A stretch of 64,000 bases of DNA, from positions 270,265-334,264 of the forward strand of contig CAVXYG010000012.1 of assembly GCA_963766005.1 (NCBI GenBank), in the 5' to 3' direction. The translations under genes were made by a program, and so were the position numbers. The notes under the pieces are model-generated. The model made no database searches and was not told the origin of the DNA. It worked only from the letters and a program-made list of their open reading frames with translations. This DNA is from an uncultured Actinomycetota bacterium (GTDB taxonomy: Bacteria > Actinomycetota > Actinomycetes > S36-B12 > GCA-2699445). Positions 9,790 through 56,519 of the stretch are shown one piece after another. How positions within the stretch are numbered: position 1 is the stretch's first letter; every line of letters begins with the position of its first letter.

Positions 9790-9834
9790 GCACCGGTTCC
9801 TCTCGGTCACCCTTGCAGCGTACGCGAGGGCGCC

Positions 9835-9950: not shown

Positions 9951-9964
9951 CCGGAAGCGCCTCG

Positions 9965-35868: not shown

Positions 35869-35969
35869 GGCGCCAGTATTGCCGCTCCCGGTCGGCAATG
35901 CGTTTCCATCTATACCCGGGGGGGTATACAATGAGCACTCTCGCCGGATCAGCCTGGAGGATTCCCACG

Positions 35970-36086
35970 ATGTGCAGCCCAGCCCTGTGCCCCCGTTGCC
36001 GCAAGGTCACCTGGACCGGATGCGGCAATCACGTCGAGCAGGCATTGTCCGGATTCCCCGCGGAGCGGCGCTGCGAGTGCCGCTAG
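35970..36086 (+). CDS. small cysteine-rich protein (38 aa), function unknown
   Basis: MCSPALCPRCRKVTWTGCGNHVEQALSGFPAERRCECR has 6 Cys. GGAGGA Shine-Dalgarno 8 nt upstream of ATG 35970. High GC3. The track ORF 35898..36086 starts further upstream. Confidence 0.6.
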   Translation: MCSPALCPRCRKVTWTGCGNHVEQALSGFPAERRCECR

Positions 36087-36422: not shown

Positions 36423-38075
36423 CTACCCCTGGGGGGAGTCGGCCCGATCGAGGCTGCGCAGCACCGATGCCCGCTGGGACTCATCGAACAGCACGACGTC
36501 CCTGCGGCCGCGCCAGACCGGCATCCCCGCCGCGAGGTACCGGTAGGACGAGCGTGCGACGGCTCGCGCTCGGCGGGGCTCGTTCGGCCACCGAAGGGAC
36601 TCGGCGAGCGAGGCCACCGAGGCCGCGTCGCGCGCCAGCCAGCGGCTGGCGAGATCCGCTGTCACGAGGCGGTCGCGCTTGTCGTTGTTGCATCCGCGAT
36701 CGGTCAGCACCAGGTTGCTGAGGTCGTCGTTGGCGTAGTGGCTCCACGGGATCACATGATCGACCTCCACGTTGCGGCCCAGCGCGCGGCGGCACCAGAA
36801 GCAATCCCGGATGCCGAGATCCCGCAGCCCCTCGGCAACCGGCGCCAGGGAGCTGCGCTCGGCGCCGAACATGAAGTCGGACAGATCGGCCCCCTCGAGC
36901 TGGAGCCCGTTGAAGCCGGCGACGCCATCCACCCAGACGTCGTGCGCGGCGATGCGGATCAGCGCCGCGTTCCGGGCCAAGGCCTCGGCTACGCCCGGAT
37001 ACAGCGTGATCACCGGTCTTGGGTCCAGCGCACCCCGCTCCGCCTGGTAGCGGCTGTCGTCGAAGAGGAAGCGGGGGTAGCCGTCTGCGCCGGAAGCGGA
37101 CCCAGGCCGCTGCAAGCGCGGCACCGGCTGCTTGGCCAGGGCCCGCTCGACGGCCCGCCTGCACCGCTGGTACGCAACCGGGAAGCCGCCGCGCACGCGC
37201 CCCAGCGGCGTGCCGGGACCGGCGCCGGACTTCGCCCGAAGCTGGAGCAGCGCGGTGGTGATGCGCAATCGGCTGCGACCCGGCCCCTGCCGCAGGGCAG
37301 GCGCGTCGAGGGCGGGGTAGGGCCGGGTCTGTGGCCAGTACAGCTCCATGACGCGGTCAGCGACATCGGCCAACGGCAGCGTCAGCGGTGCCGCTGGCTG
37401 GCTGCGCTCGACGGCCAACTCGGTGAGCGCCAGTAGCAGGGCAGGCTTGTAGGTAGCGCTGCGACGTCCCTCGTTCAGGACTGCGAGCACGCGCTGCACC
37501 AGGTCCGCCTGTTCCGTTGCCGACGCTGCGGCCTCAGCCGGCGACGCGGCCTCGGCTTGGGCAGCCGCGGACGCCGCAGTCCGGCTCGACGCCTCCTGCA
37601 GTGCCGAGGGTGAGGGCGTCGCCGACGTCTCATCCCGTTGCGCCAACGCCACGAGCGGGTGCGCTGGTTGCCATTGCTGCGCCGGCCCTGCTCGCAGGTA
37701 ATTGCCGCGACCCGGGATGACGTGACGCACGCCACCGCGTGGATCGGTCGCATCGCCCGGGTACCGGGGGATGAGATGGACGTGGGCGTGGAAGATGGTC
37801 TGACCGGCCACGGCGCCGTCGTTGAAGCCGACGTTGTACCCGTGCGGCCGGTACCGATCGTCGAGCAGCGCCTTGCACTGCAGCACGAGCGCATCGACCG
37901 CGGCACGCTGGGCCGCGGTCGTCCCCCACCAGCTCGGCACGTGTCGGCGCGGGACCACCAGGGTGTGGCCGCGGCTGACGGGAAAGGCGTCAAGCACCGC
38001 GACGGCCTCGGCGTTGCTCGCGACGATCCGCGAGGGGGCCACGTCGCAGAACGGGCAGCCGGAGTCACCCTGCAC
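36423..38075 (-). CDS. fusion protein: N-terminal HIT (histidine triad) domain - uncharacterised central region - C-terminal HNH nuclease
   Basis: ORF 36423..38144 (the TTG at 38144 is the outermost start; GTG 38075 was chosen just before CPFC). HIT: CPFC, GHTLVVPRRH, HAHVHLIPR (about 37776-37790). HNH: CFWC...VDHVIPWS...NLVL..CNNDKRD (about 36677-36803). Confidence 0.8.
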   Translation of the reverse strand: MQGDSGCPFCDVAPSRIVASNAEAVAVLDAFPVSRGHTLVVPRRHVPSWWGTTAAQRAAVDALVLQCKALLDDRYRPHGYNVGFNDGAVAGQTIFHAHVHLIPRYPGDATDPRGGVRHVIPGRGNYLRAGPAQQWQPAHPLVALAQRDETSATPSPSALQEASSRTAASAAAQAEAASPAEAAASATEQADLVQRVLAVLNEGRRSATYKPALLLALTELAVERSQPAAPLTLPLADVADRVMELYWPQTRPYPALDAPALRQGPGRSRLRITTALLQLRAKSGAGPGTPLGRVRGGFPVAYQRCRRAVERALAKQPVPRLQRPGSASGADGYPRFLFDDSRYQAERGALDPRPVITLYPGVAEALARNAALIRIAAHDVWVDGVAGFNGLQLEGADLSDFMFGAERSSLAPVAEGLRDLGIRDCFWCRRALGRNVEVDHVIPWSHYANDDLSNLVLTDRGCNNDKRDRLVTADLASRWLARDAASVASLAESLRWPNEPRRARAVARSSYRYLAAGMPVWRGRRDVVLFDESQRASVLRSLDRADSPQG

Positions 38076-38294
38076 GTCGAGCAGCCTGCCAGATCGGAGT
38101 GCCGAGGCGCGCGACGCTGGCGTTCCAGCACGATGCCCGGCCAACTCGACGCGTCGCTTGCGGCGCGCGCTGCTCGTTGCCTACCCGGTCGTTCGGTGCG
38201 CCATGGCAACACGCCGCGCAATCGACGTCACGGATGGTTGTTCGCCGGACGTCCGACCGCCTAGACTGAAGAAGTGACTCAGGGGGAATCCAAG

Positions 38295-38981
38295 ATGCGC
38301 CGCAGTGCACTGGTCTATCTGGCAGGCCTGGCCGCCGCAGCTGTCGTGGTGCTCGCCATCTACTCAGGTGTGGCCGACTCCGGCGCGACATCGACGGCGA
38401 CGAACGGCGACGTGGCGAGCGAGACGCCGGGCGGCGGCGCCGCTGCGACTCAGGACGGCTCCGAGGCGACCGACCCCGATGGTGCAGAGTCGGCGCCGGG
38501 CAAGTCCGGCACCGCCGGTGCGGCTGCTGCCAAGAGTTCGAAGGGCAAGGCGCTCGGCCTTGAGAAGAACGCCCCGATCCCCGCGTACGAGGCGGCCCCG
38601 GTTGACGAGGCCGTGACGATTGAGAACCAGGTCACGGCATCGATCGTGAAGATCGAGAAGACCGAGTCGGACGGTCGCGGTGCGGGCGAGATCGATGGTC
38701 CCGCGCTTGCGGTCACGGTGGAACTGACGAATAACTCCGCCGAGGCGATCGACCTGTCGACCAGCGGTGTCACGATGGCGCTCGGTGCCGACATGATCCC
38801 GGCGTCGCCGCTGCCGACGCAGTCGAAGTCCGACCCCTTCTCCGGCACGCTCGCCAGCGGGAAGAAGGCGACGGCGACCTATGTCTTCCTGGTCCGAGAG
38901 GGATCGCCAGCAGAGCTTCGGATCGAGGTCACGCACGGCGGGACCAACCCGCTCATCGTCTTCACGGGCACTCGCCCGTAG
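38295..38981 (+). CDS. membrane-anchored extracytoplasmic protein with C-terminal beta-sandwich (DUF4352-like)
   Basis: ORF 38274..38981. ATG 38295 lies behind GGGGGA. One TM segment, an Ala/Gly/Ser-rich linker, then VTVELTNNSAEAIDL...ATYVFLV. Confidence 0.7.
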   Translation: MRRSALVYLAGLAAAAVVVLAIYSGVADSGATSTATNGDVASETPGGGAAATQDGSEATDPDGAESAPGKSGTAGAAAAKSSKGKALGLEKNAPIPAYEAAPVDEAVTIENQVTASIVKIEKTESDGRGAGEIDGPALAVTVELTNNSAEAIDLSTSGVTMALGADMIPASPLPTQSKSDPFSGTLASGKKATATYVFLVREGSPAELRIEVTHGGTNPLIVFTGTRP

Positions 38982-39047
38982 GGCCAGGGTCGATTGCGCG
39001 CAGTGCACTTGGGCCGCTGGTACGTCGTGGCGTGGTGACTAGCCTGA

Positions 39048-39091
39048 CTGCGCACCCACTGCGCCTCTGGTCTTCTGCGTGGAGTGCGCAG
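39048..39091 (+). terminator. possible stem-loop downstream of 38295..38981
   Basis: CTGCGCACCCAC (39048-39059) pairs with GTGGAGTGCGCAG (39079-39091), 12 of 13 positions. No U-tract. Confidence 0.25.
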
Positions 39092-39559
39092 AGTCCCGGT
39101 TGAGGTGCCAGCAGCGCGCTGTCCGGCACACGCTGCAGCTGCCAGGTGCTCGTACCTCGCGATTGCGGCTGTGTGCTGCTGCAACTGCTGACACGGTCCG
39201 AGGCCGAATCGGCAGTGCTTCTGCGGCCAGCACGATGCCGGCAGCCGCCGGTCAGGCAGGGGTGTCGCACAGCAACCGGGCGCCGGAGGCCCGACCAGCA
39301 TAGACATCGGCTGTGGCTTCCCAAGCCGGCTCGAACCCTCGGATTCGCTACGAGGGCAACTGCAGACCGCCAGGTCGGCCACCCGGCGAGGCGGTCGGCT
39401 ACGCATCGGCCCCACCACCGATGCCAGGAGATGCACGCCGGAGCGAACCGCAAGGCTCACGGGGATCGAGGGGCTGTCCCGACCCGCAGATGTCGCTCGC
39501 CGACGACAAGTCGGAAGTGGGACCAAGCCGCCGTCACTCCCCTGCAGCGCGCACCGGCC

Positions 39560-40576
39560 CTACCGCTGGGCGGATGCATCCCGACGGCGCTGCACCGCCT
39601 GGTCGTAGACCGCGAGGTGCAACTCCCCGGCCAGGTCCCAGTCGCGACCACTGAGGTCGGGCGCAGCGCTCTGGTCGATCTCGCGCGCCTGCTCCAGCGC
39701 CCGAGCCAGGGCAGCAGCATCCAGCGGTGCTTCGTACTGCAGCACCCAACCGGCCCCGACCTCGTCTGCCAACTCCTGCGCGATCCTGGATGCGGGCACC
39801 AGCACCGGTCGTCCCAACGAGAGCGCAAGCAGCACCGCGCCGGAATTGTGCATCTCGGCGTAGGGCAGCACCACCAGCTCCGCCTGGCCGATCTCGCGCG
39901 CCAGATCGGCATCGCTGACCCGTTCCAGGCGCAGTCCGACGCGCGGATCCCGGGCGGCAAGACCCTCGAGCTCGGCTTGCAGGTCGGCGTCCTTGGCCTT
40001 GCCGCAGACCCTCAGACTTATCGAGTCGCCGCCCAGCTCGGCGAAGGCGGTGAGGAGCCCGGGTACCGCCTTGTACCGGCGGAGCAAGCCGAAGAAGAGC
40101 AGACGTCCGGGCACGCGGTGGCAGACCTCGTGGTCCCGGTACCACGAGATGTAATGGCCGTGCGGGATGAGCGTCGCCTCACCGCCAAGCGGCACGGCCG
40201 TCGCGGGGTTCAGGGCGATCCAGCCGTCGGTCTGGGCGTCCACCAGGTCGAGGATGCGCCGGTCCACCGACGAGGCGACCTCGTGAGGCTGCTCGTTGTG
40301 CAGTGTGCGCACGATGGCGATGCCGTCGCGGCGGCATCGGCGCAGCAGGGCGAGGAGCGCGGCGCGCCGCCGCCAGTTGTAGAGCGCACCGCGGCCCTGC
40401 AGCAGGTTCTCCGGCCAGTGCAGGTGGAGCACGTCGTAGTCGGCGCGCAGCGCCAGCCGCCAGTCGAACGTGCGCACATCGGCCCCCACGGTCGTCAACG
40501 ACCGCACGAGTTGGGCCATGTACGGATTGCGCGGGGCAGCCTGTTCGTCGAACGACTGCAGTACTCGCAGGGTCAC
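39560..40576 (-). CDS. glycosyltransferase (GT-B fold, GT4-like)
   Basis: ORF 338 aa with a C-terminal E...E-type donor-binding region (LPYAEMHNSGAVLLALSLGRPVL). GTGA overlap with the upstream gene. Confidence 0.8.
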   Translation of the reverse strand: MTLRVLQSFDEQAAPRNPYMAQLVRSLTTVGADVRTFDWRLALRADYDVLHLHWPENLLQGRGALYNWRRRAALLALLRRCRRDGIAIVRTLHNEQPHEVASSVDRRILDLVDAQTDGWIALNPATAVPLGGEATLIPHGHYISWYRDHEVCHRVPGRLLFFGLLRRYKAVPGLLTAFAELGGDSISLRVCGKAKDADLQAELEGLAARDPRVGLRLERVSDADLAREIGQAELVVLPYAEMHNSGAVLLALSLGRPVLVPASRIAQELADEVGAGWVLQYEAPLDAAALARALEQAREIDQSAAPDLSGRDWDLAGELHLAVYDQAVQRRRDASAQR

Positions 40577-41754
40577 GAGGCCTCCTTCTTCGCCCGCCGG
40601 TAGCTGCCCCGCAGCTGGCGCAGCGCCTCACGAGGTTCGCCCAGAGCCAGCGAGGCCAAGCCGAAGCCGCGGTATTTCGGCACCGAGCGGCCCGCGAGTC
40701 TCCGGCCGGTGAGCCGCGCCGCGAGGAACCTCCGTCGGCTCACCTGCAGCGGCTGCACGGCATGCAAAGCGCTGATGCTCTGGTCGGCAACGACCAGATG
40801 GCCGCGGGCGACCGCATGTTCCACCAGCGCGCGACCGCGCGGGGTCCTGGCGATGATGACGCTCTGCCCGGGCGCCTCGTCGAAGACCGGGAAGCCCTTC
40901 TCGTCGGATTCCCAGATGTCGCCGGCAGCCACGTCGGCGCTCTCCCCGACGCCGTCCACGCAGATCTTGCACCGAGACTGCAGGCGTTTGCCCAGGTGCT
41001 GGCCCCACGACTCCTCGTAGGTCGTCGCATGGGACGAGCCACCGGGGTCGGTGAAGCTGAAGAAGCCCGGCCAGCCGTTGCCGCGGTAGCGCAGGCCGAC
41101 GACGCTGCCGGGCTGTCCGCCCATCTGCTCGATCAAGTCGTCGGTCGCGGCTTGGCTCGGCACGCCGGCGCAGAAGAAGGACAGGATGTAGGGGGTGCCG
41201 ACCGCGGGCAACCGCCGCAGCGCGGATGCCTCGCACGGTCTGCACACGATCGCCGTGCCCGGCCCGGCGCCGGCGAGCGCCGCAGTCGTGGACGCCGGGG
41301 CGTATCGGGAGGACGCGTACTCGCCCAGCTCGGCGGGATCGGTCACGGCTGCCGTGAGCGTGCGGCTGCCACGTTCGGCGCCACCGGCCACCACGACCCC
41401 GGAGACTTCGTCGAGCTCCAGCGCCGCTCGGGCCAGGGCGCTGAGCGCGCCGCCGCTGCTGCCCTTGAACCGCAGCTCGGGATCGGCGGCGTGGCCCACC
41501 CAGACGTGCAGCGCGTCGCCGAAGTAGGCGTCGCGGGTAGCGCCCGGGGCGGGATCTGGTCGCTGGACCGCGATCGCCGGGCAGTAGTCGGCCAGGGGCG
41601 GACCCTCGCCTGCCGGACTCGCGGCCGGGACGGGTCGCAGGTGGCCGGCCGGATCCAGCGCCATGCCGCTGGCCAGGCCGGTGAGCACGCAGGCGCCGCA
41701 GCCGCTGCAGTTCCCGCTGGCCAGCACGGCCTGCAGATCCAGGCGTTTGGTCAT
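40573..41754 (-). CDS. coenzyme F420 hydrogenase/dehydrogenase beta-subunit-like (FrhB family) Fe-S flavoprotein
   Basis: In ORF 40573..42264. Start placed at MTKRLDLQ (41754, ATGA overlap with wzx). N-terminal CSGCGAC, then RPCE...FFCAG...C.ICVD motifs. Confidence 0.75.
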   Translation of the reverse strand: MTKRLDLQAVLASGNCSGCGACVLTGLASGMALDPAGHLRPVPAASPAGEGPPLADYCPAIAVQRPDPAPGATRDAYFGDALHVWVGHAADPELRFKGSSGGALSALARAALELDEVSGVVVAGGAERGSRTLTAAVTDPAELGEYASSRYAPASTTAALAGAGPGTAIVCRPCEASALRRLPAVGTPYILSFFCAGVPSQAATDDLIEQMGGQPGSVVGLRYRGNGWPGFFSFTDPGGSSHATTYEESWGQHLGKRLQSRCKICVDGVGESADVAAGDIWESDEKGFPVFDEAPGQSVIIARTPRGRALVEHAVARGHLVVADQSISALHAVQPLQVSRRRFLAARLTGRRLAGRSVPKYRGFGLASLALGEPREALRQLRGSYRRAKKEAS

Positions 41755-43241
41755 CGCTTCCCCCGGAGTTTGCCCGATCCCATCGATCGCACGATCTGCA
41801 CCACGGCCAACTCGTCGCGCCGAATGAACGGCAGCAGCGCCCCGAGTGCGTAGACCCCCAGCACGGCCAGCCCGGCCAGCCCGATCGCCACGACCGCCGG
41901 CAGTGCGGCAGCGGCCTGCACCGTGGCGAGGGCGGCCAGTCCGGCCGCAGCCGCCATCCCGAGGATACGCAGCGCGCCGCCGATGATGCGCCGCACCGGG
42001 ATCTCGGTGCGGCGGGAGAGCCACCACAGCGAGGTCGGCCACAGCACCGCCGCCGACAGTGCGACACCGGCCGCCACGCCGATGGAGCCCCACGTGCTGC
42101 CGACGACGATGAACAGCACGCGCACGCCCGCGGAGATGAGCGAGTAGTAGAACAACTGCTTGGTCAGTGCTCGGGAAATGTAGACCCAGTAGCCGACGTA
42201 GGACAGCAACTGCAATCCGCCAGCGATGGCGAGCAGGGCGAGGATCGGGGCGACTTCGGTCCATTGGTCGCCGAGGAACACCTCGACCACCGGCTCATGG
42301 GCCCCGGCAAGCAGGGCCACGAGCGGCACCATCACGTAGCCGATGCCCAACTGGCCAGCGAGCAGGGCCCGGTCGTACCGGGCGCGATCCCCGGCCAGGC
42401 GGGAGAACAGCGGCAGCGCCACGGTCGTGGTGGGCGCGCGCATCTGGGCCAACGGGACCATGACGAGCCGGTAGGCGCGGTCGTACAGTCCGAGCTCCAC
42501 CGGGCCCGCGCGATATCCGATCACGACCGTGTCGGCGTTGCTGGCGCCATAGGAGAGGAGCTGGGATCCCAGCAGTTGCACGCCGAAGCGCCAGAAGGCG
42601 CTCATCTCGGCCGAGCGGTCGATCCAGCGCGGCAGCCAGCGCGAGGCAATGATGAAGAACACCCACGTGGCCAGCGCCTGCGACAGTTGCATGGCGACCA
42701 GCGACCAGTAGCCCCAGCCGGACAGCGCTGCAGCCACTCCCGCGCCGAGGCCGATGAACTGCGCGGCCAGTTCCGAGGCGGTCAGGGCGAAGAAGCGCAT
42801 GTGGCGAGTGAGATGGGCGCGGTACTGGGTCGCGGCGCCGTTGAGGATGAAGACGAAGGCCAGGACCCGGGTGATCTCGACAATCTCCGGCTGGTCGAAG
42901 AACCCGCTGATCGGCACGGCCGCCGCCTGCGCCAGCAGGAACAGCAGTACACCCAGAGCGGTATTGGCCCAGAACAGGTTGTCCTGCTGCCCACGGGTCA
43001 GCGTGGGGGACTGGATCGCCGCCGCGCCGAGGCCGAACTCGCGGAAGATCTCACCCAGGACGACGACGACGCCCACCATCGCGACCAGGCCGTAGTCCTC
43101 GGGCGTCAGCAGCCGGGCCAGAACCACAATGCCGGCGGTCTGCACCAGCAGGCGCACCAACTGGCCCCCGGTGGTCACGAAGGCGCCGCGGGCGGCCTGG
43201 CGCTCCAGGGTGCGGTTCTCGGCGGGGGCCTCGCTACTCAT
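41751..43241 (-). CDS. wzx: polysaccharide flippase (Wzx, MOP/PST family)
   Basis: ORF 496 aa with about 12-14 TM segments. N-terminal LARLLTPEDYG motif typical of PST-family exporters. Confidence 0.85.
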   Translation of the reverse strand: MSSEAPAENRTLERQAARGAFVTTGGQLVRLLVQTAGIVVLARLLTPEDYGLVAMVGVVVVLGEIFREFGLGAAAIQSPTLTRGQQDNLFWANTALGVLLFLLAQAAAVPISGFFDQPEIVEITRVLAFVFILNGAATQYRAHLTRHMRFFALTASELAAQFIGLGAGVAAALSGWGYWSLVAMQLSQALATWVFFIIASRWLPRWIDRSAEMSAFWRFGVQLLGSQLLSYGASNADTVVIGYRAGPVELGLYDRAYRLVMVPLAQMRAPTTTVALPLFSRLAGDRARYDRALLAGQLGIGYVMVPLVALLAGAHEPVVEVFLGDQWTEVAPILALLAIAGGLQLLSYVGYWVYISRALTKQLFYYSLISAGVRVLFIVVGSTWGSIGVAAGVALSAAVLWPTSLWWLSRRTEIPVRRIIGGALRILGMAAAAGLAALATVQAAAALPAVVAIGLAGLAVLGVYALGALLPFIRRDELAVVQIVRSMGSGKLRGKR

Positions 43242-44338
43242 CGGGCCCGGTGGTCGGCCTGGGGAGTCAGCGATCGCAACGCCTCGCGCGCCTCGTCGAT
43301 GCCGCGGTCGGCCGCGGTCCGGACCGCGGCGGCCCGGTCTGACAGCGACGGATCGGCCGCGTACTCCAGCACCGCCGCGGCCGAGCCGCTGGAGGCGCGC
43401 AGATCCACGACGTCGTGCCAGCCGATGTCGGCGAGCAGCGGTGTGAACTTGTCCGAGTAGGCCATCGGGATGGCGGGAACGCCGGTGGAGAGGCTGTTCA
43501 GGCAGGCGTGCATGCGTGACCCGATCGTCAACCGGGCACCCGCAACGATCGAGCGGGCGTCCGCCAACGACGTGGGCACGACGACGTCCAGCGGGGTGCC
43601 CACCGCCGCAATCACATCGGGCAGCACCGCTTCGTCGTTGTCGCGCGGATCGCCGGCCAGCACGTGGGGCATCAGCGTCACCGCACGGCCGGACTCCTGC
43701 AGTCCGCGGATGACCTGCACGACGGTGCGCCGGTAGTCCTCGCTTCGACCGTGGGCATCGGTGCTCCAGAGCAGCCCGGAGACGTTCATGATCACATCGC
43801 GTCGTACGCCGATGCCCGGCTGGGGCAGCGCGAAGACGACGTCGGTCACCACGCGGTCGACGGGACGGCCCAGAGCAGCGGCGCGGGCCGCGCTGTCGGA
43901 GTCGCGGGCGAAGACGATCTGAGCCATCCCCAGCGCCCGCTTGGCCAAGATCCGCCCGCGCCGGGTCGTGAAGGGGCCGATCGTTTGGGGGGCGATGACC
44001 ATCGGTGTGCCGGAGCGGCGCACCGCCTCGGCCATGAGGTGCATGATCGTCAAGCGGCGCAGGCCGTAGATGTCGGCGAAGCTGTCGCCGGACCGGGTGT
44101 CCAGGACGAGGTCGAAATCCGCCAGCCAGTCGACGACGCCGCCGCTGCCGGTGGCCAGCTCTTTGGCGGCCGCTCGCACGCTCCCCATCGGCACCGGTGT
44201 CACCCGAGAACCGAAGTTGTGGTTGACGACGTCGGCCTCGGGCCAGACCGAGGCGATGAGGGCCCTGCTCCCGGCGCCCAGGGCGCGGACGCCGAGGTTT
44301 GGGGAGCGGTCGTCGGCCCAGAGAACAAGAACCCTCAC
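43238..44338 (-). CDS. polysaccharide pyruvyl transferase family protein
   Basis: ORF 43238..44365. GTG 44338 was chosen (VRVLVLW...). Motifs: NLGVRALG, GDSFADIYG, GSRMHACL. ATGA overlap with the wzx start. Confidence 0.8.
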   Translation of the reverse strand: MRVLVLWADDRSPNLGVRALGAGSRALIASVWPEADVVNHNFGSRVTPVPMGSVRAAAKELATGSGGVVDWLADFDLVLDTRSGDSFADIYGLRRLTIMHLMAEAVRRSGTPMVIAPQTIGPFTTRRGRILAKRALGMAQIVFARDSDSAARAAALGRPVDRVVTDVVFALPQPGIGVRRDVIMNVSGLLWSTDAHGRSEDYRRTVVQVIRGLQESGRAVTLMPHVLAGDPRDNDEAVLPDVIAAVGTPLDVVVPTSLADARSIVAGARLTIGSRMHACLNSLSTGVPAIPMAYSDKFTPLLADIGWHDVVDLRASSGSAAAVLEYAADPSLSDRAAAVRTAADRGIDEAREALRSLTPQADHRAR

Positions 44339-44483
44339 GCTACCCCCATAACTGTCAGTGACCATTCAAGAATGCCACGTCCCGGTCGGGAGTCGAGACC
44401 GCGAAGGGGAGAGCCGCCGCGGGGCGCCGACATCCTGCCGTGCGGCTGGTGGCGCCGGGCGCGCGTGCTCGCGCGCCGTGCGC

Positions 44484-45587
44484 TCAGAGGCCGGATGCCT
44501 GCGATGCGTGGTGCTGCGGCGTCGCTGGCGTGCCCACCTGCGCCAGGGTCTTGCGGTACTCCCGGTACCGGAGGCCGAGGCTGCCGGAGATCATCCCGAT
44601 GCCGCGGGCCTGCGTGCGCAGCCCCTGGCCGCTGAGCGCCGGCCTGCGCAGGACCAGCCCAAGCACGGCCTGCAGCGAGCCGCCGGCAGCGCGTACCACG
44701 CCGCGAGCCACTCCGGCGACGCGCACCCCGGTCCGCCGCCCGCTCGAGGCGGCCAGCGCGACGTCGGTCCTGGTCCAGGTCAACCCGCTGCGCATGGAGC
44801 GCTTCCAGACCCAGCCCAGGGAGAGCCGCGATGCGGGGACGAACTCGGTTGCCCCCGCTTCCTGGCACCACACGATCTCGCCGCCGCACTCGACCAGGCG
44901 TCGGGTGAACATGGTGTCCGAACCGCCGGTGGCGCTGAAGCGCGGATCGAAGCGCAACCCCATCTCCCGCACCGACGCGACATCGAGCAGCAGGTTGTTC
45001 GTGGCAGCGGCCGGCATGCGGGTGCCGGTCGGGTACTCCGGTCGGTCGAACGGCCTCGCCGCGGCCACTAGCGGAGTCGGCTCGACCTCGTAGCGGCGGA
45101 ACTGCGGCCCGGACACGGCCGTCGGCCGGTGCTGCCGATAGATGTCCACCAGGGACCGCAGCCAGGTCGGATCGGGCACTTCGTCGTCGTCGATGAGCAC
45201 GACGCAGTCGTAGTCGGCCGCCTCGTCGAGAATCCGGTTGCGCCCCTCGGCGATGCCCTTGGCGCCGTGCAGCACGTACCGGGCATCCGTGCCGAGGCCG
45301 GCGACCACTGCGCGTGCAGTGCCGGCCGGATCGTTGTCGACCACGAGGACATCGGCAGCCGGGTGCAGGTCCTCGGCCTGGTGCATCGCCTGGGCCAGCA
45401 GTGCGGGGAGGTAGTCGGCCCGGCCGAACGTGAGGATCGCCACCAGCGTGCGGGGATCCTCCCCCTTCGAGGCACCGTCGGAATCCGTCGCCGCGGCGTG
45501 GATCGGATCGGCTCGGGAATCCTGTACGGCCGCGGTCGTTGCCGGCCTTGGTCGTGCGGGGTCCTGTGCCGGCGGTTGAGGCTCCAT
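44484..45587 (-). CDS. glycosyltransferase family 2
   Basis: ORF 44484..45641. Start uncertain: MEPQPP at 45587 was chosen, behind a weak GAGAG Shine-Dalgarno. Motifs: VAILTFGR, VVDND, LIDDDE (DxD). Confidence 0.8.
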   Translation of the reverse strand: MEPQPPAQDPARPRPATTAAVQDSRADPIHAAATDSDGASKGEDPRTLVAILTFGRADYLPALLAQAMHQAEDLHPAADVLVVDNDPAGTARAVVAGLGTDARYVLHGAKGIAEGRNRILDEAADYDCVVLIDDDEVPDPTWLRSLVDIYRQHRPTAVSGPQFRRYEVEPTPLVAAARPFDRPEYPTGTRMPAAATNNLLLDVASVREMGLRFDPRFSATGGSDTMFTRRLVECGGEIVWCQEAGATEFVPASRLSLGWVWKRSMRSGLTWTRTDVALAASSGRRTGVRVAGVARGVVRAAGGSLQAVLGLVLRRPALSGQGLRTQARGIGMISGSLGLRYREYRKTLAQVGTPATPQHHASQASGL

Positions 45588-45688
45588 CGCTCTCATTGTG
45601 GCACTGACGGCGGCCGCCATCGCATCGCAGCGCAGCGTCACATCGTGTGCTGAGAGTATCGGTACTGGGCGAGTGTGAGGTACCGTGG

Positions 45689-46792
45689 ATGCTTCATGGA
45701 GGTCTCGGCCTGAGTCTGATGCGGGGGTATGGCGTGGCAGCCGTATCGAGTACGGCGCGCAGCCGGATGGTCTGGATGGACTTCCTGCGCGGCGTGGCGA
45801 TCTTTCTTGTGGTGTGCTGGCATTCGGCAGCGATCCTCGTGCTCGAGGGTCAGACCGTGCCCGACTGGCTCATGATCGCCAACGACATGTTCGCCCCGTT
45901 CCGCATCCCGATGCTCATGTTCCTGTCGGGCATGCTGCTCGACCGGGCCCTGCAAAAACCGCTGTGGACCTACTACGAGGGCAAGCTGCGCAATATCGCC
46001 TGGCCGTGGGTCGTGTGGACGCTGGTGCACTTCGCCGTGATGGGCACCTACGCCTCGATCACCCAGCACGGGCTGTGGTTGTTCTCCTACCTCTGGTTCT
46101 TGGTCTACCTGCTGGTGTTCTACGCCGTGGCCCCGCCCCTGCGCCGGATCCCGACGTGGCTCCTGGTGGTGGCGCCTTACGTGGTGGGACTCACCACCCA
46201 GGAGGAGCACGTTCGGCGCTTCTTCTTCCTGGCCGTGTTCTTCTTCCTGGGGAAGTGGGCCAGCGAGCACGCCGGTCTCATGCGGCGGGTCGCTGAGTCG
46301 CGGTGGACGCTGCTGCTCACCCCGGTCGTCGTCGGCTACGCCGTGGTCTTCGCGACGGTGGGTCCGTGGCGCTACCAGCTGCCTCACATCCCCATGTCCT
46401 TCCTGGGCATCGTGCTGGCGGTGGCGCTGGTGTGGCACATGCGGCCGGGCCGGCTCATGGGCGTGTGGAGCTTCGTGGGGCGGAACTCGATCGTGTACTA
46501 CGCATCCCACTTCCCGGTCATCGTGCTCGCCGTCCGGGTGGGCATCGAGCTGGGCTGGTCCGCCACGCTCAGCGTCGCGGTCGGACTCGTCCTCGCGCTG
46601 GCTGTCGGCACGGGCTTCGCGATCAGCCGCGACACCCCGCTGGGCTGGCTGTTCGCCTTCCCCAAGATCCGTCGACCGGCGGCAGTCCAACGCCCCGCGG
46701 CCCGCGAGGTCGCGCCGTCGGCAGCGACCTCCGGTGAGGGGTCCGCGCCTGCGGACCTCCAAACGCAGCCCGCTGCTGCTGCCGTGCGATAG
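45689..46792 (+). CDS. membrane acyltransferase family 3 (O-acyl/acetyltransferase)
   Basis: ORF 45647..46792. Start uncertain (45689, 45719 or 45767). WMDFLRGVAIFLVV..H motif and about 10 TM segments. Confidence 0.8.
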   Translation: MLHGGLGLSLMRGYGVAAVSSTARSRMVWMDFLRGVAIFLVVCWHSAAILVLEGQTVPDWLMIANDMFAPFRIPMLMFLSGMLLDRALQKPLWTYYEGKLRNIAWPWVVWTLVHFAVMGTYASITQHGLWLFSYLWFLVYLLVFYAVAPPLRRIPTWLLVVAPYVVGLTTQEEHVRRFFFLAVFFFLGKWASEHAGLMRRVAESRWTLLLTPVVVGYAVVFATVGPWRYQLPHIPMSFLGIVLAVALVWHMRPGRLMGVWSFVGRNSIVYYASHFPVIVLAVRVGIELGWSATLSVAVGLVLALAVGTGFAISRDTPLGWLFAFPKIRRPAAVQRPAAREVAPSAATSGEGSAPADLQTQPAAAAVR

Positions 46793-46953
46793 ACGCCAGG
46801 CGAGAACCGGGCTGGGCAGCGCAGCCGGCACCGAAGAGGCAGATCCGGGTCCCCGTCTTCGCGAGCACCGGCCGAGCGGCGACGACCGACCTGTGTGCCC
46901 CGGGTCCTGGGTCTGTGACGGGCCCCGCGTGAAGTGCGCGTCGATCGGCCCCC

Positions 46954-48021
46954 TCAGGGCCAGCTGCCAGCAGGAACCTGGTCGATCGCCTCGCGCATGC
47001 GCTCCACGATGCCGAGCCAGGGATCCGATGGCGGAGGGCTCGGCGCGCCACGACCGGCGGCGAGGACGTCGCGGATCGCCTGAGCGGCGCCGGTCACGTC
47101 GTCGGGATCCACGAAGACGGCACCGTCGCGGCACACCTCGCGCATCACCGGCAGATCCGACACGATCACGGGGCAGCCGAAGGTTTGCGCCTCCAGCGGC
47201 GGCAGCCCGAACCCCTCCCCCCGGGTCAGGAAGAGCAAGCAGTCGGCGTGGCCGTACAGCCAGGCCACCTCGGCATCGGAGAGCGCGCCCAGGAACCGGA
47301 TGGCTCCCCGCTCGATCGCAGCGCTGACCTGTGGTCCGAACGATTCGGCGGGGCCGTCCGGGGCGCCGACGACCAGCATCGGCCGGGTCGGGCTGATGGC
47401 TCCGGAAGCGACGGCTGCGGCCAGTGCGGTGCGGAGGTTCTTGCGGACGTTCAGCCGGCCAACCGACAGCAGGAACGCATCGATCCCCGGCCCGAGGTCG
47501 GGGCGGACGGGATCGCTCTGGAGCAGAGGCGACTTCACCGCCAGGCCGATGGGCACCACCCGGGTCAGTCGCGGATTGTATGCGGCGATCCGATCCGCTT
47601 CGGATTGGGAGGACGTGAACACCACCGATGCCCTACGGGCCATGGCCGGGATCGGCTTCAGGTAGGCGCGCTCCAGGCTGGAGAACCACTCGGGGTTCGA
47701 TTGGAAGAGGACATCGTGGATGAAGACGGCACACCGACCCCAGGCGGGGGTGAAATTCTGCGCGATCGTGACGTCCACGCGGTGCCGGGCGGCGACCCGC
47801 GGCAACCAGGCCATCGCCGAGATCCCGTGCGGGGAGAGCCTGGTGCGCACTGAGGCGACGCCGGCCGGCAATGGCGGATCAGGCGGAGCTGCTCCCGGGA
47901 TCGCGACGAGCACCTCGTCCTGATCGAATCTCTGACGCCAGGCGCGCACGAGCTCCTGGACGACCGCTCGATTCGAGGGCGGGCCCTCGTTCCACCAGTA
48001 CGCGTCGAACAGGATTCGGAT
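46954..48021 (-). CDS. glycosyltransferase family 4; apparently no canonical start codon (ATC behind GAGGAGA)
   Basis: ORF 46954..48309. High GC3 and family-typical (M)RILFDAYWW only begin at 48021. The upstream in-frame part is A/T3-rich. C-terminal EGFGLPPLEA motif. Confidence 0.75.
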   Translation of the reverse strand: MRILFDAYWWNEGPPSNRAVVQELVRAWRQRFDQDEVLVAIPGAAPPDPPLPAGVASVRTRLSPHGISAMAWLPRVAARHRVDVTIAQNFTPAWGRCAVFIHDVLFQSNPEWFSSLERAYLKPIPAMARRASVVFTSSQSEADRIAAYNPRLTRVVPIGLAVKSPLLQSDPVRPDLGPGIDAFLLSVGRLNVRKNLRTALAAAVASGAISPTRPMLVVGAPDGPAESFGPQVSAAIERGAIRFLGALSDAEVAWLYGHADCLLFLTRGEGFGLPPLEAQTFGCPVIVSDLPVMREVCRDGAVFVDPDDVTGAAQAIRDVLAAGRGAPSPPPSDPWLGIVERMREAIDQVPAGSWP

Positions 48022-48239
48022 GATCGTCTCCTCTGTTCTGCGATTCCCTGAGTGTAGTGAAGCGGCCTGCCCGTCTCGCGCAGCGGACTGGGCTGATCGC
48101 ACCGACCCTGAGGATGGTCGGGTGGGCATCGGCACTTTGGCTGGGGGACGATGTTCCGCTACTCTCTGTAACGGGGCTCGGTGTTGCTGCGCTGGCAGTC
48201 TGGCGCCATGCGAAACTGGCTCAACGAGGGGGTACTGCA

Positions 48240-49758
48240 ATGGGTTTCCGGGACTACTTCGCCGTCCTGCGCCGCTATTGGCTCGTGATTGTGCTCGTGA
48301 CCGGGTCAATCGTCGGCGTCACGGCATACGTCTCTGCGAACGCCGAGCCGCTGTACCGTTCCTCCGCGGCAATCTACCTGATACCCAACGGGGAGACTCC
48401 CAACGAGTTGAGCCAGGGGTCGCAGTTCGTCGAGGACCAGTTGGACTCCTACGCCCAGTTGGCGGCGACCTCGACCGTGCTCGATCCGGTCATCGAGGAA
48501 CTCGGGCTGAACACCACGGCGCGAGCCCTCGCCGGCAGCGTCGACGCGTCGGTGAAGAGCGGCAGCGTCATCGTCACGCTCACGGCGGTGTCCGCCGATC
48601 CCGCGCTCGCGGCACAAGTCGCCGACGCAACAGCTGCGAGTTTGTCGGTCCAGATCACCGAGCTTGCCCCGGTCCGCCCGGACGGCACCTCATCGGTGAC
48701 GGTTTCGCCGGTCGAGCAGGCCACCGTGCCGACGAGTCCGTTCGCCCCGAACACGTCGCGCAACGTCACAGCTGCTTTGGTCTCTGGACTGATCATCGGC
48801 TATCTTCTCGCGCTGGCATGGAGCCTGCTGGACACGCGGCTGCGCACCAGTGGTCAGGTGCGCGACGTGGTGGGCGCGTCGGTGCTCTCCGAGGTCCCGT
48901 TGACGCGAAGCACGAAGATCGGTGCCAATCAGGCGAACTGGGCCTATGTGGAGTCCTTCCGGAGGCTGCAGGCCAACCTCGACTTCGTGGACGTCGGGGA
49001 GCGGCCGCTGCAACTGGTCGTCACATCCTCGGTTGCGGGTGAGGGCAAGTCGACAACGTCGCTGAACCTGGCCCTGGTCTGCGCGGAGGCTGGCCAGAAG
49101 GTGCTGTTGGTTGACGGAGATCTGCGGCGACCCAACGTGCACAAGACTGCTTGGTCTGGAGCCGAGCGTGGGCCTGTCCACGGTCCTGGCGGGCAAGTCG
49201 TCGCTGGACGATGCAGTCATCTCTGTGGGCCGGGGTACCACGATCGACGTGCTGTGCAGCGGCCTGCTGCCACCGAACCCGACGGAACTGCTGGCGTCCA
49301 GCGCGATGGACGACATGCTCGCCGAGGCAAAGCGGAAGTTCGATATCGTGGTGATCGACATGCCTCCGGTTGTTCCGGTGGTGGAAGGCCTGGTGGTGGC
49401 GCGCAAGGTGAACGGGGCACTGCTGGTCTCTCGGCTGGGCAAGGGGCGCCGAGACCAGTTGAAGGCCGCTGCGGACCGGTTCCACGATGCCAACGCCGCA
49501 ATCCTCGGCATTGTGGTGAATGGCACCGACCATGCCGCGCGCTCGTCCTACTACTACGGCAGCGATGTTGGGAGCAACGGCAAGCCCAAGGGCAAGCCCA
49601 AGCGTGGCCGCTCCCAGCGCGGCAAGGCAAAGAAGTCGGCGGCGCAGACCAGTTCTGCTGTGCAGGGCAATTCGGCGAAGACTGCGCCGCAGGGGGCAGG
49701 CCTCGCTCGTCACACCTCGGCGAGGCCGCCCACATCGCCTCAGAGCAAGTTGTCCTAG
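48240..49758 (+). CDS. polysaccharide co-polymerase (Wzz) fused to BY-type tyrosine autokinase, frame broken by one extra base near 49146
   Basis: Start at MGFRDYFAVLRRYW (GAGGGGG Shine-Dalgarno) in ORF 48057..50018, running up to DGDLRRPNVHK. It continues as LLGLEPSVGLSTVL...VVIDMPP...SSYYYGS in ORF 49111..49758. Walker A is GEGKST. Span is 1519 nt = 3n+1. Confidence 0.85.
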
Positions 49759-50007
49759 CTGGCCCCGTCCCTGACCGGGGGCGATCGGATCCGCTCACTG
49801 CTGTCGTGGTCTCAGCAAGGGTCAGGAGTCTCGGCGAGCGACGCGCTGCGTCGCTCAGTTCGGGCCCGGGCCGAATCCGGAGTCCGGTTCCGGGGCGTTG
49901 GGTCCCGGCAGATCCGCTGCGGATCTTGCTGGAGCAGTGGGGGTCACCAACGCACTGGGAGGGTCGAGCCCCCGGGAAACGGTATGGCGCTGGTGATCCG
50001 GGCGGGT

Positions 50008-50700
50008 TCAGGCGGTGAGCTCTGGCATGGTGTCAGCACCGATCTTGCTGTGTTGGTGGTGGTGACCTTGACGCGGCAGCGGGCGAGGACTTCGAGTCCG
50101 ACGTGGCGACAGCCTTCGGCCATTGGTCGGCCTGCCGGGCGAGGACCACGCGACGAGGCGCACGATGACCTCGCGGTTCGGGAGGATGCCGACCGCGCCG
50201 GCCCGGCGCCGCTCGTCGGAGTGCACCACCGCGATCACCGCGGGCCTCATCGACCTCGGTGCCGGCGATGTCAGGTTCGCAGCGGAGCGCGTCCTGCAGC
50301 GCTGCGCTGGCCAGGGTCAGCCGCCACGGCTTCGACCGGCTCCGGCGGGAGCGTCGCTGGTGACGAGCAGGACTCCGCCCAGCCCACGAACTGCGAGGCC
50401 GATGAAGAAGTCGGTCCCGGTAGCACCGGTCCCTGACGTGGCGCCGCGCCGGCCGGGACCTCGCGGCGACCTTCGCCGTTGACGCCGGTTGCCACGAGCA
50501 CCACCGCGTTGATCATGCGGCCGCTGTCCAGACCGTCCACGTCAGCGTCCCAGCGGCGACCAACGTGGACGGCCCTGCCGCGTCGAGGGTGCGGTGCCGG
50601 GACTGCTCGACGTGCTCGTGGGCGGCCCAGCTGTCCCCAGTGCCCCCGTGGTGGCCGTTCGGCGCCGGTGCCATGATCATCCGCCTGACCCTTGCTCGAC
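50008..50700 (-). mobile_element. degraded IS256-family (mutator-type) transposase remnant
   Basis: Fragments lie in different minus frames: AAHEHVEQSRHRTLDAAGPSTLVAA (about 50540-50632), GRMINAVVLVATGVNGEGRREV (50457-50522), ERRRAGAVGILPNREVIVRLV and the terminal ...MPELTA* (stop at 50008). The catalytic core is far too short. No intact ORF and no recognisable inverted repeats. Confidence 0.65.
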
Positions 50701-50743
50701 CTCACGTGGGGGCGCAGCGCGGCACCAGCGGTCCCCTGTCGCA

Positions 50744-51737
50744 TCAGGCCGATGCTGTTCCCGTCGCTCTGGTCTCCGGCGCTTCGCGGCCCGCCCGTGC
50801 CCCGTCACGGATACCGCGCAGGGAGGCTTGCCAGGCATCGCCAGATCGCAGGAGTGCATCCCGCCGCCCCCGTGCCCGTCGGATGATGAACCAGGCCGCG
50901 GCACCGCTCGTTTCGGCGCCAATCGCGCTGCACCTGCCGCGTGAGGTTCCGTTCAGCGAAGAGCAGCCGATTGCGCGCCCAGTAGTAGAAGAACGTCGGC
51001 GTCTTGGGATCTGGTCTGCCGGTCGACGCATCGGCAGCCCGTTGGGTCCCGCCTTGATCGTGGACGCACCGTGCCCCCTCGACGATGACGAGCCGGCCGC
51101 CCTCCTGCCATGCGCGGAAGGAGAACTCGACGTCCTCCCAATACAGGAAGTAGTCCTCGCACATGCCGCCGATGCGCAGCCAGAACTCGGCGCTCACCAT
51201 GAGGCAAGCCGCCGACAGCCAGGGGAGAAGGCCCGCACTCGGCCGGAGTTCGCCGGAGAGCTGCGGCTCGGTCATCAGTCCGTCGCTGAGTCGCAGATGC
51301 CGAGCGGGGGCTTTGCGGGTGCCGGTGATGTCGAAGAGTGAGGGGGACGCAAGAGCGCTTGCATCCTGGGAAACTGCCGCGGCCAGCGCTTCGGCGTCCT
51401 TGGAAGTAATCCTGGCGTCGGGGTTCAGCAGGAGCAGATGTGTGGCGCCGAGAGCCAGCGCTGCAGCAGCTGCGCGGTTCGTTCCGGCCGCGAAGCCGTC
51501 GTTCGCGGCCGACTCGATGAGTACCCATCCGTGCTCCTCGACAAGGCTCCGCAAGTGTGCGCGCTCGCCGTCGGAGGTGAAGTTGTCGCATACGACAACT
51601 TCCATGTCCGGCGCCGAGGCCGACAGCGGCGCCAGGTTCTCCGCTAGCAGGCGGTGGGAACCGTAGTTGACGGTGAGCACCGCCACGCTGGCGAGGGGCG
51701 CATCCCTGCCGCCGGCCGCTTCGGCGCTGCTCTTCAC
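50744..51737 (-). CDS. glycosyltransferase family 2 (rhamnosyltransferase-like), frame broken near 50911-50913
   Basis: ORF 50805..51737 (VAVLTVNYG, DNFTSDG, YWEDVEFS, YYWARNRLLF). The family-typical C-terminus (TSGAAAWFIIRRARGRRDALLRSG...) continues in ORF 50744..51031. Observed cgAAAcgag versus expected cga acg agc. GTGA overlap with the sulfotransferase stop. Confidence 0.8.
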
Positions 51738-52378
51738 GACCCGGGGAGGCGCAGCCGTTGCTGGGCCGCCTTCGCCTTGCGCTTGATCCGCTGCGCCACG
51801 TTCGGGGCCTTGTTCTTGTGCGGGAACGGCTCATCCGGCTTCGGCACACCGAGGAACGGGCAGAGGACGTCCCAGCCGTCCCCGGCGGATATGTCCATCT
51901 CCAGCAGGTCGTCGGGTCGGTCGGCGAAGTACTCGCGAACAGCCTGCTGGTGCTCGTAGTACTCCTTGGTCCAGGCATCGTGGTCGACGGTGAGCCAGTC
52001 GCCGGTGTACCCCGGCTTCTCCTGGTTGGCGCGCACGTGCGACTCGCGGCTGCGCAGGAAGCCGTCCAGGCTGCGAGTGGTCATGATGAACTTGCTGCCC
52101 GGGTACTGCCGATCCAGCTCGCGGAACAGGTGGTTGGTCTCCGGCTTGTTCCAGTCGCTGATTGCCCGGTATTGCTCCAAGCCGTCGAGCAGGGGTCGAC
52201 CGGACTCGCTGTTGGCCGCGATGATGTCCTTCACGTTGCCCTCGCGGCACAGGTAGTGGGCGCTGGGGATGTCGAGGACGCCGAAGGCGAGGTGCAGGGA
52301 CCCGGTGCCGGTCTTGTTGACACCGATGCACAGGATTCGGGGCGCCTCGCTCGGCGCGGGGTGAGGGCTCGCAGTCAT
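51734..52378 (-). CDS. sulfotransferase family protein (Sulfotransfer_4-like)
   Basis: ORF 214 aa. PAPS-loop-like GVNKTGTGSL, then KFIMTTRS, GWDVLCPFLGVPKPDEPFPHKN. Confidence 0.75.
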   Translation of the reverse strand: MTASPHPAPSEAPRILCIGVNKTGTGSLHLAFGVLDIPSAHYLCREGNVKDIIAANSESGRPLLDGLEQYRAISDWNKPETNHLFRELDRQYPGSKFIMTTRSLDGFLRSRESHVRANQEKPGYTGDWLTVDHDAWTKEYYEHQQAVREYFADRPDDLLEMDISAGDGWDVLCPFLGVPKPDEPFPHKNKAPNVAQRIKRKAKAAQQRLRLPGS

Positions 52379-52457
52379 GCAGCAATTGTCGCATGGGGAA
52401 GCGCTGTCGCAGAATGCGCTTCGGGTGCCGCCTGCGGTCCCTGCGGCACCCGACGGT

Positions 52458-56303: not shown

Positions 56304-56519
56304 GGAGTCCCCCTGATGTGCCAGCATTTCCTGACTGTGCGAAGACACACCCTTCGGTGTGCCAACTCTCACAACGATGCAGATTACACGCCGTCGCCGG
56401 CCCGCCCGATTTGGGGCGATATCCAGCTAACGTTGTGTGACCTCCATCATGCACTGCGGGTGGGTCATCTGCGGAATCGGTCACTTCCCAGAGGCAGCCG
56501 TTGCCACGACCTGCACCGG

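Follow-up and report, generated by a model that had tools for sequence, protein, structure and literature searches.

The stretch of DNA analyzed here (the window) comprises 64,000 nucleotides from an uncultured Actinomycetota bacterium (contig CAVXYG010000012.1, positions 270,265 to 334,264) and carries, at 36423-38144 on the minus strand, a gene that places a histidine-triad (HIT) enzyme and an HNH nuclease in one polypeptide. Our analysis reveals that this protein is no isolated oddity: it is the single-gene version of an operon of two genes that is widespread. Both catalytic centers are intact, and the HIT enzyme is genetically linked to the nuclease by fusion or by a coupled operon. With somewhat more belief than doubt, we take the module to be an uncharacterized, solitary restriction-like HNH nuclease whose HIT partner would provide nucleotide-dependent control.

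HIT enzymes are known for nucleotide housekeeping, for tumor suppression (Fhit) and for DNA-end repair (aprataxin). To our knowledge, they have not been described as partners of restriction-type nucleases. What is new here is the partner enzyme of a restriction-like HNH nuclease, together with a nuclease domain to which no fold could be assigned; the whole makes a candidate defense module.

A HIT enzyme and an HNH nuclease in one reading frame

The open reading frame (ORF) is unbroken, ends with a stop codon at 36423-36425, has full-length homologues and encodes 573 amino acids (aa) when counted from a TTG codon. The true start is probably the GTG at 38075, which is favored by the public gene call and by where homologous proteins begin and which gives a protein of 550 aa; residues below follow the 550-aa form unless the 573-aa form is named. 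The GC contents of the three codon positions (0.75/0.56/0.86) are normal for real genes of this genome, and the GC content of the window, about 70%, is actinobacterial in type.

The HIT domain core (37758-38039, minus strand; aa 36-129 in the 573-aa form) was found by Pfam, by sequence matches in the PDB and by Foldseek. Its score against Pfam HIT (PF01230) is 70.8 bits where the gathering cutoff is 21.5 bits (E = 1.6e-19); this score and the HIT fold of the model place it in the HIT superfamily. Foldseek aligned the model with HIT, Fhit and Ap4A-phosphorylase structures at a probability of 1.0, with TM scores (target) of 0.6-0.75 to 3imi, 6af2, 1y23 and Fhit. Searched as a whole, the model matched HIT structures only (Bacillus anthracis and Bacillus subtilis Hit, mycobacterial Ap4A phosphorylase and Fhit), in agreement with the PDB sequence matches 3l7x, 6af2, 3imi and 3wo5. 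The motif HAHVHLI lies at 37776-37790, and the histidine of GHxL is supplied by an upstream GHTLV. The predicted nucleophile is the middle histidine of the HxHxH triad, H98 (H121 in the 573-aa form). HIT enzymes work through a covalent nucleotidyl-histidine intermediate and act on NMP-X or ApnA compounds, not on NTP.

The closest known relatives of this domain are Fhit, bacterial Hit and mycobacterial Ap4A phosphorylase (Rv2613c; PDB 3ano/3wo5, 6af2), with 30-39% identity and the shared elements HxHxH, GHxL and AGQT. Unlike these enzymes, the window HIT has its own tail, DPRGGVRHVIPxxxNY, and is linked to a nuclease. It is also claimed by no NCBIfam equivalog; the model for ATP adenylyltransferase (NF052622) gave 51.5 bits against a cutoff of 290 bits.

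The HNH domain (36666-36803, minus strand; aa 448-493 in the 573-aa form) is of the beta-beta-alpha-Me type and Cas9/McrA-like, and it matches the Pfam models HNH_4, HNH and HNH_5. In the 573-aa numbering, HNH_4 (PF13395) covers aa 457-493 (E = 1.4e-9; 38.2 bits against a threshold of 22), and HNH (PF01844) covers aa 451-492 (E = 3.7e-6; 27.4 bits against 21.4). The domain contains CFWC, the VDH motif with the catalytic histidine (H463 in the 573-aa form, H440 in the 550-aa form), and N477 and C485-N486 of the 573-aa form. Family-wide, C425, C428, D439, H440, N454, C462, N463 and K466 are conserved to at least 85-90%. With Pfam scores above threshold and the catalytic D-H...N...N set (D439, H440, N454, N463) in place, the protein belongs to the HNH nucleases. 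The first-pass annotation, made from the letters of the window alone, had proposed two complete catalytic domains joined by an unassigned module, with HAHVH at about 37776-37790 and CFWC...CNNDKRD at about 36677-36803. Pfam and the conserved catalytic residues bear out the domains, and the positions are right as well, the second motif spanning about 36675-36803.

Fused and split forms of the module

About 45 homologous clusters, 41-63% identical to the window protein, share the order HIT, middle domain and HNH over 90-96% of their length. Their named sources are Actinobacteria and Nanopelagicales. Since these clusters come from independent metagenome and genome assemblies and keep the same order, the HIT-HNH fusion is real, and the idea that an assembly indel had merged two genes is rejected.

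Fusion is confined to the actinobacterial clade of the window and is a minority form of the HIT-linked pair: 38 loci have HIT beside the nuclease, 5 of them fused, all within this clade, and 33 split. In the split loci, separate genes encode a HIT protein of about 125-135 aa and a middle-HNH protein of about 350-380 aa. Their junctions are those of translational coupling, 14 being of the ATGA/GTGA type and the others TAGATG, TAAATG and similar. Such loci occur in Acidobacteriota, Myxococcota, Planctomycetota, Omnitrophota and Gemmatimonadota, in Alpha-, Beta- and Gammaproteobacteria and in Solirubrobacterales, covering seven or more phyla in all. In the independent RefSeq annotation, plasmids of Aromatoleum aromaticum EbN1 and Polaromonas naphthalenivorans CJ2 likewise carry a gene for a "HIT family protein" with one for an "HNH endonuclease" behind it. 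Three further members, from a branch of about 359 aa, all have an adjacent HIT gene, which overlaps the start of the nuclease by 4 nt in two cases and is convergent in the third.

The junction between stop and start codons in these operons corresponds to a linker in the fused protein. This Ala/Ser-rich, disordered segment, together with the start of a long helix, occupies 37506-37694 (minus strand; aa 151-213 in the 573-aa form); pLDDT falls below 50 at residues 112-154, and linker length varies among homologues. Thus, the window protein unites what is elsewhere a conserved pair of genes, and this speaks strongly for both parts working together.

One HIT clade joined to several nucleases

For comparison we assembled 97 HIT domains, of which 41 are fused to middle-HNH, 33 are encoded by split genes and 23 are fused to other proteins. 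The triad residues H96, H98 and H100 are present in 97/97; with H37 included, the catalytic histidines are kept in 95-100% of the set. D29, P32, H37, N81, N85 and AGQT are near-invariant in the same domains. Behind the core stands a C-terminal signature of the clade, GDxxDPRGGVRHVIPxxxNY (37698-37757, minus strand; aa 130-149 in the 573-aa form), which in split systems forms the C-terminus of the HIT protein. Its residues P112, G114, G115, R117, P121 and Y126 are conserved to at least about 90% in the fused, split and other-nuclease-fused HITs alike. Conservation of triad and tail across the 97 domains indicates selection for catalysis and not for a scaffold alone.

The same clade is fused to a phospholipase D-type (PLD) nuclease of the NgoFVII-like kind, to PLD-ResIII-helicase proteins (P0066, P0072, P0074), to a ResIII-McrC-like protein and to a second HNH family, where HIT sits at the C-terminus. 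One catalytically intact HIT clade has therefore been joined repeatedly, by fusion or in operons, to at least five nuclease scaffolds of kinds often found in defense islands.

Two loci of this clade deserve separate mention. In Archangium lipolyticum (L101; JANKBZ010000016.1), a stand-alone HIT with the signature adjoins two PD-(D/E)XK-like genes of the Uma2 family as well as an AAA_15/AAA_21 ATPase and its uncharacterized partner; this arrangement may be a further nuclease association of the clade. The 563-aa protein P0063 carries a HIT of this clade at its N-terminus, followed by about 460 unassigned aa, and is annotated by NCBI as an RHS-core protein of Sorangium.

The nuclease core and its unassigned domain

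An AlphaFold2 model of the 550-aa protein, built from 59 homologues (mean pLDDT 85.7), divides it into HIT (1-110), the Ala/Ser linker (112-154), a domain made mostly of helices that extends to about 424, the beta-beta-alpha unit of HNH (425-470) and a structured tail (473-546). The middle domain (36804-37505, minus strand; about 235 aa) is marked by the motifs TYKPALLLAL, YWPQ(T)RP, LRQ, PRLQRPG and FLFG..R. Modeled alone, it reached a pLDDT of 90.6 and a pTM of 0.86. The C-terminal tail (36426-36665, minus strand) is made of helices and a beta-hairpin with conserved R482, W496, R502, Y511 and W521, and it belongs to the nuclease module.

The middle domain resembles nothing in the collections searched. 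Pfam at E ≤ 10 gave no match for the middle ~250 aa or for the C-terminal 80 aa, a sequence profile of the domain found nothing in the PDB, and Foldseek of its model found no relative in the viral set BFVD or in the PDB, where the best E was 2.1. Thus, none of the reader domains of type IV enzymes, namely PUA/SRA/EVE/YTH, the sulfur-binding domain (SBD), winged helix, DUF3427 and iEndoIII, was recognized in Pfam, PDB or BFVD. The first-pass annotation had likened this region to a helical or winged-helix DNA reader; its helical character is borne out by the model, whereas the winged helix or any known reader is not. Assignment of the TYKPALLLAL region to the ScoMcrA SBD is rejected on the same searches. 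The middle domain is presumed to be a DNA-recognition module.

The nuclease family is much larger than its HIT-linked part. Searching a profile of the middle domain alone against 1.84 billion clusters yielded 2005 representatives (1237 at E ≤ 1e-10), almost all of 340-390 aa with the domain at the N-terminus and HNH behind it. In 185,579 species genomes, one per species, at least 512 relatives were found. The distribution is patchy; relatives occur on 16 plasmids, and the search of plasmids and phages found none on a phage. No HIT lies within 10 kb in 51 of 90 loci, including those of Gordonia, Kineococcus, Williamsia, Rhodococcus and Vicinamibacterales, and the closest HIT-less relatives of the window nuclease part are likewise without HIT. 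Since half of the family lacks HIT yet keeps the same conserved core, the nuclease is autonomous. It is thus the core of the family, and HIT is an accessory partner.

Across 82 loci we found neither a universal partner gene nor a recurrent methyltransferase. The slot upstream of the nuclease is variable, being occupied by HIT, by an NYN gene, by a fused ADP-ribosylglycohydrolase (ARH) and phosphatase, or by nothing. In five Kineococcus loci (L057, L008, L013, L022, L042), a 559-aa fusion of ARH with a dual-specificity phosphatase is encoded 13 nt upstream of a HIT-less middle-HNH and in the same orientation; in L057 its gene spans 8334-10013 (plus strand). This gene may stand in for HIT as a partner, or the arrangement may be mere genus-level synteny. 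The NYN-domain (RNase-like) gene, at 5440-5997 (plus strand) of L100, ends 3 nt before a HIT-less middle-HNH and is possibly another occupant of the slot.

Two further family members were noted in passing. The 560-aa P0301 apparently combines middle-HNH with a C-terminal Peptidase_S24 (LexA-like) domain. L045 (CAMBZJ010000011.1) comes from a genome labeled as a Klebsiella pneumoniae metagenome assembly, yet has 70% GC and is probably mis-binned or mislabeled.

Relation to known systems

In agreement with the first-pass annotation, which knew of no characterized system that couples HIT to HNH, full-text literature searches, of incomplete coverage, turned up neither the HIT and HNH pair nor the middle domain. 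PADLOC-DB 2.0 holds no model for the pair beyond generic HIT and HNH matches, and none for the middle domain. The gene is assignable to the HIT and HNH superfamilies but to no defined type IV family.

McrA and ScoMcrA are close in architecture. As type IV HNH enzymes, they too place a noncatalytic N-terminal module before HNH in a single polypeptide and have no methyltransferase; members of the window family often lie near defense genes, and JGI annotates relatives as "McrA". In contrast to them, the N-terminal module of the window nuclease matches no known reader, its HNH is HNH_4 and not HNH_2, and it has a HIT partner. It does not belong to the ScoMcrA-like, phosphorothioate-dependent SBD-HNH enzymes: neither ScoMcrA_N (PF26345) nor HNH_2 (PF13391) was matched, and Foldseek found nothing in the PDB, where the solved ScoMcrA domains should be present.

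The SauUSI-type PLD-helicase-DUF3427 enzymes are related through their partners: the same HIT clade is fused to PLD-ResIII-helicase, and HIT-less versions neighbor the family. Unlike these, the window protein has HNH and neither PLD nor helicase, and DUF3427 was not detected in the HIT-fused versions. PLD type IV restriction enzymes have been discussed, and the nuclease folds of modification-dependent restriction endonucleases listed, in one paper (PMC12191111). The END nucleases treated there are a different family.

Among defense proteins in PADLOC, the best match of the HIT domain was ThsC of type II Thoeris (E = 1.1e-11), a likeness at the generic HIT level only. ThsC is the HIT protein of a defense locus, where its role is itself only hypothesized (PMC8565338). 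Neither ThsA or ThsB nor TIR or SIR2 genes occur among the annotated neighbors, so the gene is not part of a Thoeris II system. For Septu, matches to PtuB were weak (E of 1.6e-4 or worse) and limited to the HNH motif, with no adjacent ATPase; the window protein is not a PtuB.

Genomic context: restriction or housekeeping

Copies elsewhere in the family point toward defense. A plasmid copy of Acinetobacter baumannii stands directly upstream of the BREX-1 genes WYL/BrxR-BrxA-BrxB-BrxC-PglX, and on a Marinomonas plasmid the gene is flanked by a WYL gene and by McrB-McrC with type I restriction-modification (R-M). EVE-like or SRA-like HNH_2 enzymes adjoin about 12 of the 82 loci, HIT-less PLD-helicase-DUF3427 proteins of SauUSI architecture are near the family in four loci, and NERD proteins recur. 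Furthermore, other HIT-nuclease fusions adjoin GmrSD with MukFEB-like (Wadjet-like) genes, Schlafen ATPases, and ScoMcrA_N-HNH_2 with NOV_C. A PADLOC scan (E ≤ 1e-10) took in 189 ORFs that lie at most 4 kb from one of 35 HIT-linked loci; the matches included two type IV restriction enzymes (mREase_IV, about 1e-245), JetA/B/C, DarG, two SoFic, two PD-T4-6, PDC-S01/S02, helicases like ZorD, DpdE and DrmD, and four HNH enzymes. These neighbors are suggestive of a defense-type association, and the defense-type role that the first-pass annotation had proposed fits the family-wide contexts (BREX, McrBC, type I and IV R-M, Wadjet and GmrSD).

The window copy itself tells a different story. At a second locus, L081, a HIT-HNH gene 62% identical to that of the window is flanked by the same thioesterase-FKBP-peptidase-ACT-gcvP block, and the sdh operon lies some 2 kb off in the opposite direction. 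The window has its sdh genes at 56.8-59.8 kb. Between HIT-HNH and sdh, L081 lacks the DUF4352 gene and the exopolysaccharide (EPS) cluster of the window. Flanking orthologues are 68-94% identical. By this comparison, the two nuclease genes are orthologous, but HIT-HNH is the fastest-evolving gene of the syntenic block. The first-pass annotation had regarded the local context as typical of single-gene defense, which is not supported for this copy: the gene sits on a conserved housekeeping backbone, and the adjoining island is an inserted EPS cluster. Its description of the gene as lying at the edge of an accessory, insertion sequence-scarred island is right as to the edge but finds no support as to the scars, as no transposase was found in 45-60 kb of the window. 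No element-like repeats were found at the locus, and an Rfam scan of the flanks was empty. An origin of the window copy from a mobile element or homing endonuclease is not supported, given the missing flanking repeats, the lack of phage matches and the conserved synteny.

Such a setting could suit a housekeeping protein of DNA repair or nucleotide metabolism in this actinobacterial lineage, for example an end-processing nuclease with a deadenylase, that has no part in immunity. That two genomes keep the gene in the same place, with thioesterase-FKBP-gcvP to one side of it and sdh to the other, would be expected of such a protein, as would the housekeeping neighbors of a further copy, L082, and the freedom of the locus from mobile-element repeats and transposases. 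We nevertheless consider this explanation improbable. The family is rare and patchy, with about 2000 representatives in 1.84 billion clusters and at least 512 relatives in the 185,579 species genomes; it occurs on plasmids and repeatedly beside BREX, McrBC, type I/IV R-M, GmrSD and Wadjet; and HIT-HNH evolves faster than the rest of its block.

Possible mode of action

The gene would be the single-chain form of a widespread two-component module. The first component, judged from its sequence, would be a catalytically active HIT nucleotide hydrolase or transferase of the Fhit or bacterial Hit type, and the second an HNH DNA endonuclease that brings a novel helical domain at its N-terminus and a tail at its C-terminus. 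The nuclease may act as a solitary restriction-like enzyme against incoming DNA, with the middle domain and the tail binding DNA and placing the HNH center. As no methyltransferase accompanies it, some feature of foreign DNA, or else gating, would allow such DNA to be told apart. The fusion in the window and the translationally coupled genes of other genomes suggest that HIT is an accessory subunit working physically with the nuclease.

The type IV enzymes GmrSD, BrxU and SspE (DUF262 with DUF1524) use a nucleotide-hydrolyzing domain to control an HNH-type nuclease. They have no sequence or fold relationship to HIT-HNH; they are alike in the proposed logic, as solitary restriction enzymes that combine such a domain with such a nuclease, and GmrSD genes neighbor relatives of the HIT-HNH family. 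By analogy, we tentatively prefer a mechanism in which nucleotide turnover by HIT controls the HNH nuclease. HIT, normally dimeric, would bind a 5'-nucleotidyl compound, for instance a dinucleoside polyphosphate, and turn it over, which would license or time the nuclease. A HIT homodimer might also pair two nuclease units for double-strand cleavage.

Several observations weigh against nucleotide-controlled restriction. HIT-linked and HIT-free nucleases cannot be told apart at any position of their alignment, and no docking or ligand site is therefore visible. The best matches to the profile of the HIT clade are stand-alone proteins of about 130 aa, and 2/2 sampled stand-alone HITs of the same clade had no middle-HNH within 5 kb, although one of them adjoins Uma2 nucleases and an AAA_15/21 ATPase. 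The HIT enzyme thus also exists in its own right; the notion that all members of the clade are nuclease-linked is thereby rejected. The window copy, L081 and L082 sit among housekeeping genes and not in defense islands, and the counts of defense neighbors are raw, without background correction. Finally, the strict conservation of the triad fits a catalytic coenzyme at least as well as a regulatory sensor.

This last point leads to an alternative in which HIT is directed at the DNA itself. It would recognize and cleave a nucleotidyl-phosphate linkage on the target, such as a 5'-adenylylated end, ADP-ribosylated or otherwise nucleotidylated DNA, or a phosphorothioate-related group, whereupon HNH would cut; the whole would be a type IV enzyme with a catalytic reader. 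The first-pass annotation had offered, as speculation, both a nuclease gated by a nucleotide signal and the processing of adenylylated DNA ends. HIT chemistry offers precedents, as aprataxin is a HIT enzyme acting on the 5'-AMP of DNA and HIT enzymes desulfurize nucleoside phosphorothioates. The triad is invariant in all 97 sequences, and the gene 13 nt upstream of the nuclease in Kineococcus encodes an ARH-phosphatase. The scaffolds joined to HIT (HNH, PLD, PLD-helicase and McrC-like) are of the modification-dependent type (fold list in PMC12191111). However, the window HIT resembles Fhit, bacterial Hit and Ap4A phosphorylase and not aprataxin, which is absent from the sequence and structure matches and whose zinc finger and FHA module the window protein lacks. 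Moreover, no DNA-binding element is evident in the split HIT proteins of about 130 aa, and the Kineococcus association is limited to one genus and perhaps plain synteny. We also know of no nucleotidylated phage DNA modification. Taken together, we hold this alternative to be unlikely, though deserving of some credence.

A small upstream gene coupled translationally to a downstream nuclease also resembles type II toxin-antitoxin operons. HIT might thus restrain a toxic HNH, in cis in the fused form, until infection frees the nuclease against the DNA of the cell itself, as in abortive infection. The variable upstream slot (HIT, NYN, ARH-phosphatase or empty) and the neighbors PemK, DarG and SoFic in some loci agree with such a pair. 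Against this, half of the family consists of the nuclease without a partner and with the same core, so the nuclease is not obligatorily toxic; an antitoxin would need no perfectly conserved catalytic triad; and several unrelated nucleases carry this HIT as a fusion partner. We give this arrangement very little credence. Because of the distribution of the family and its HIT-free half, both the housekeeping-repair and the toxin-antitoxin explanations are less consistent with the data than the restriction-like module with a HIT partner.

If such a module is functional, it would bring new biochemistry to bacterial immunity, with a nucleotide ligand gating nucleases or a nucleotidyl-type mark on foreign DNA. 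We put forward only tentatively the broadest version: that HIT with the novel-domain HNH is a new, widespread immune module against mobile elements, that one HIT clade is a general plug-in for HNH, PLD, PLD-helicase and McrC-like nucleases, and that the middle domain is a new DNA-recognition fold. If true, restriction would contain an unrecognized nucleotide layer, in which ApnA-type alarmones license nucleases or HIT cleaves a nucleotidylated DNA or backbone modification. The well-modeled domain of about 235 aa, being without a structural relative, may prove to be such a fold and be of use for enzyme engineering. With only one or two genes, and with carriers available in culture, such as Polaromonas naphthalenivorans CJ2 (plasmid pPNAP03) and Aromatoleum aromaticum EbN1 with its plasmid, the module is directly testable.

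Surroundings of the window gene

The neighbors of the HIT-HNH gene are a thioesterase gene, a small ORF, a DUF4352 gene and glycosyltransferase genes, with no adjacent methyltransferase, as in solitary type IV nucleases. On the stop-codon side, 336 nt separate it from the convergent small ORF (35898-36086, plus strand), and on the upstream side a spacer of 129-198 nt precedes the divergent gene for the DUF4352 membrane protein at 38274. Since both neighbors are on the opposite strand, the gene is monocistronic and stands alone, as first annotated.

The small ORF is Cys-rich (…CPRCRKVTWTGCGNHVEQAL…) and has no Pfam match. Over 39 aa, it shares 95% identity with a gene of 38 aa in the corresponding position of L081, and it is therefore real and conserved.

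The block at about 38274-56400, an insertion relative to L081, begins with the DUF4352 membrane protein and continues with the EPS cluster. The latter encodes GT1, a Wzx-like flippase, a pyruvyl transferase, GT2, an acyltransferase, GT4, a Wzz/P-loop protein and a sulfotransferase, as well as an 873-aa laminin-G/PKD protein; the GT4 also matches the "GT4-conflict" model PF20706. Within this region, two tandem ORFs of 104 aa each (52660-52974 and 53012-53326, plus strand), of which the first has no Pfam match, show third-position GC contents of 0.95-0.96 and look like paralogous small genes.

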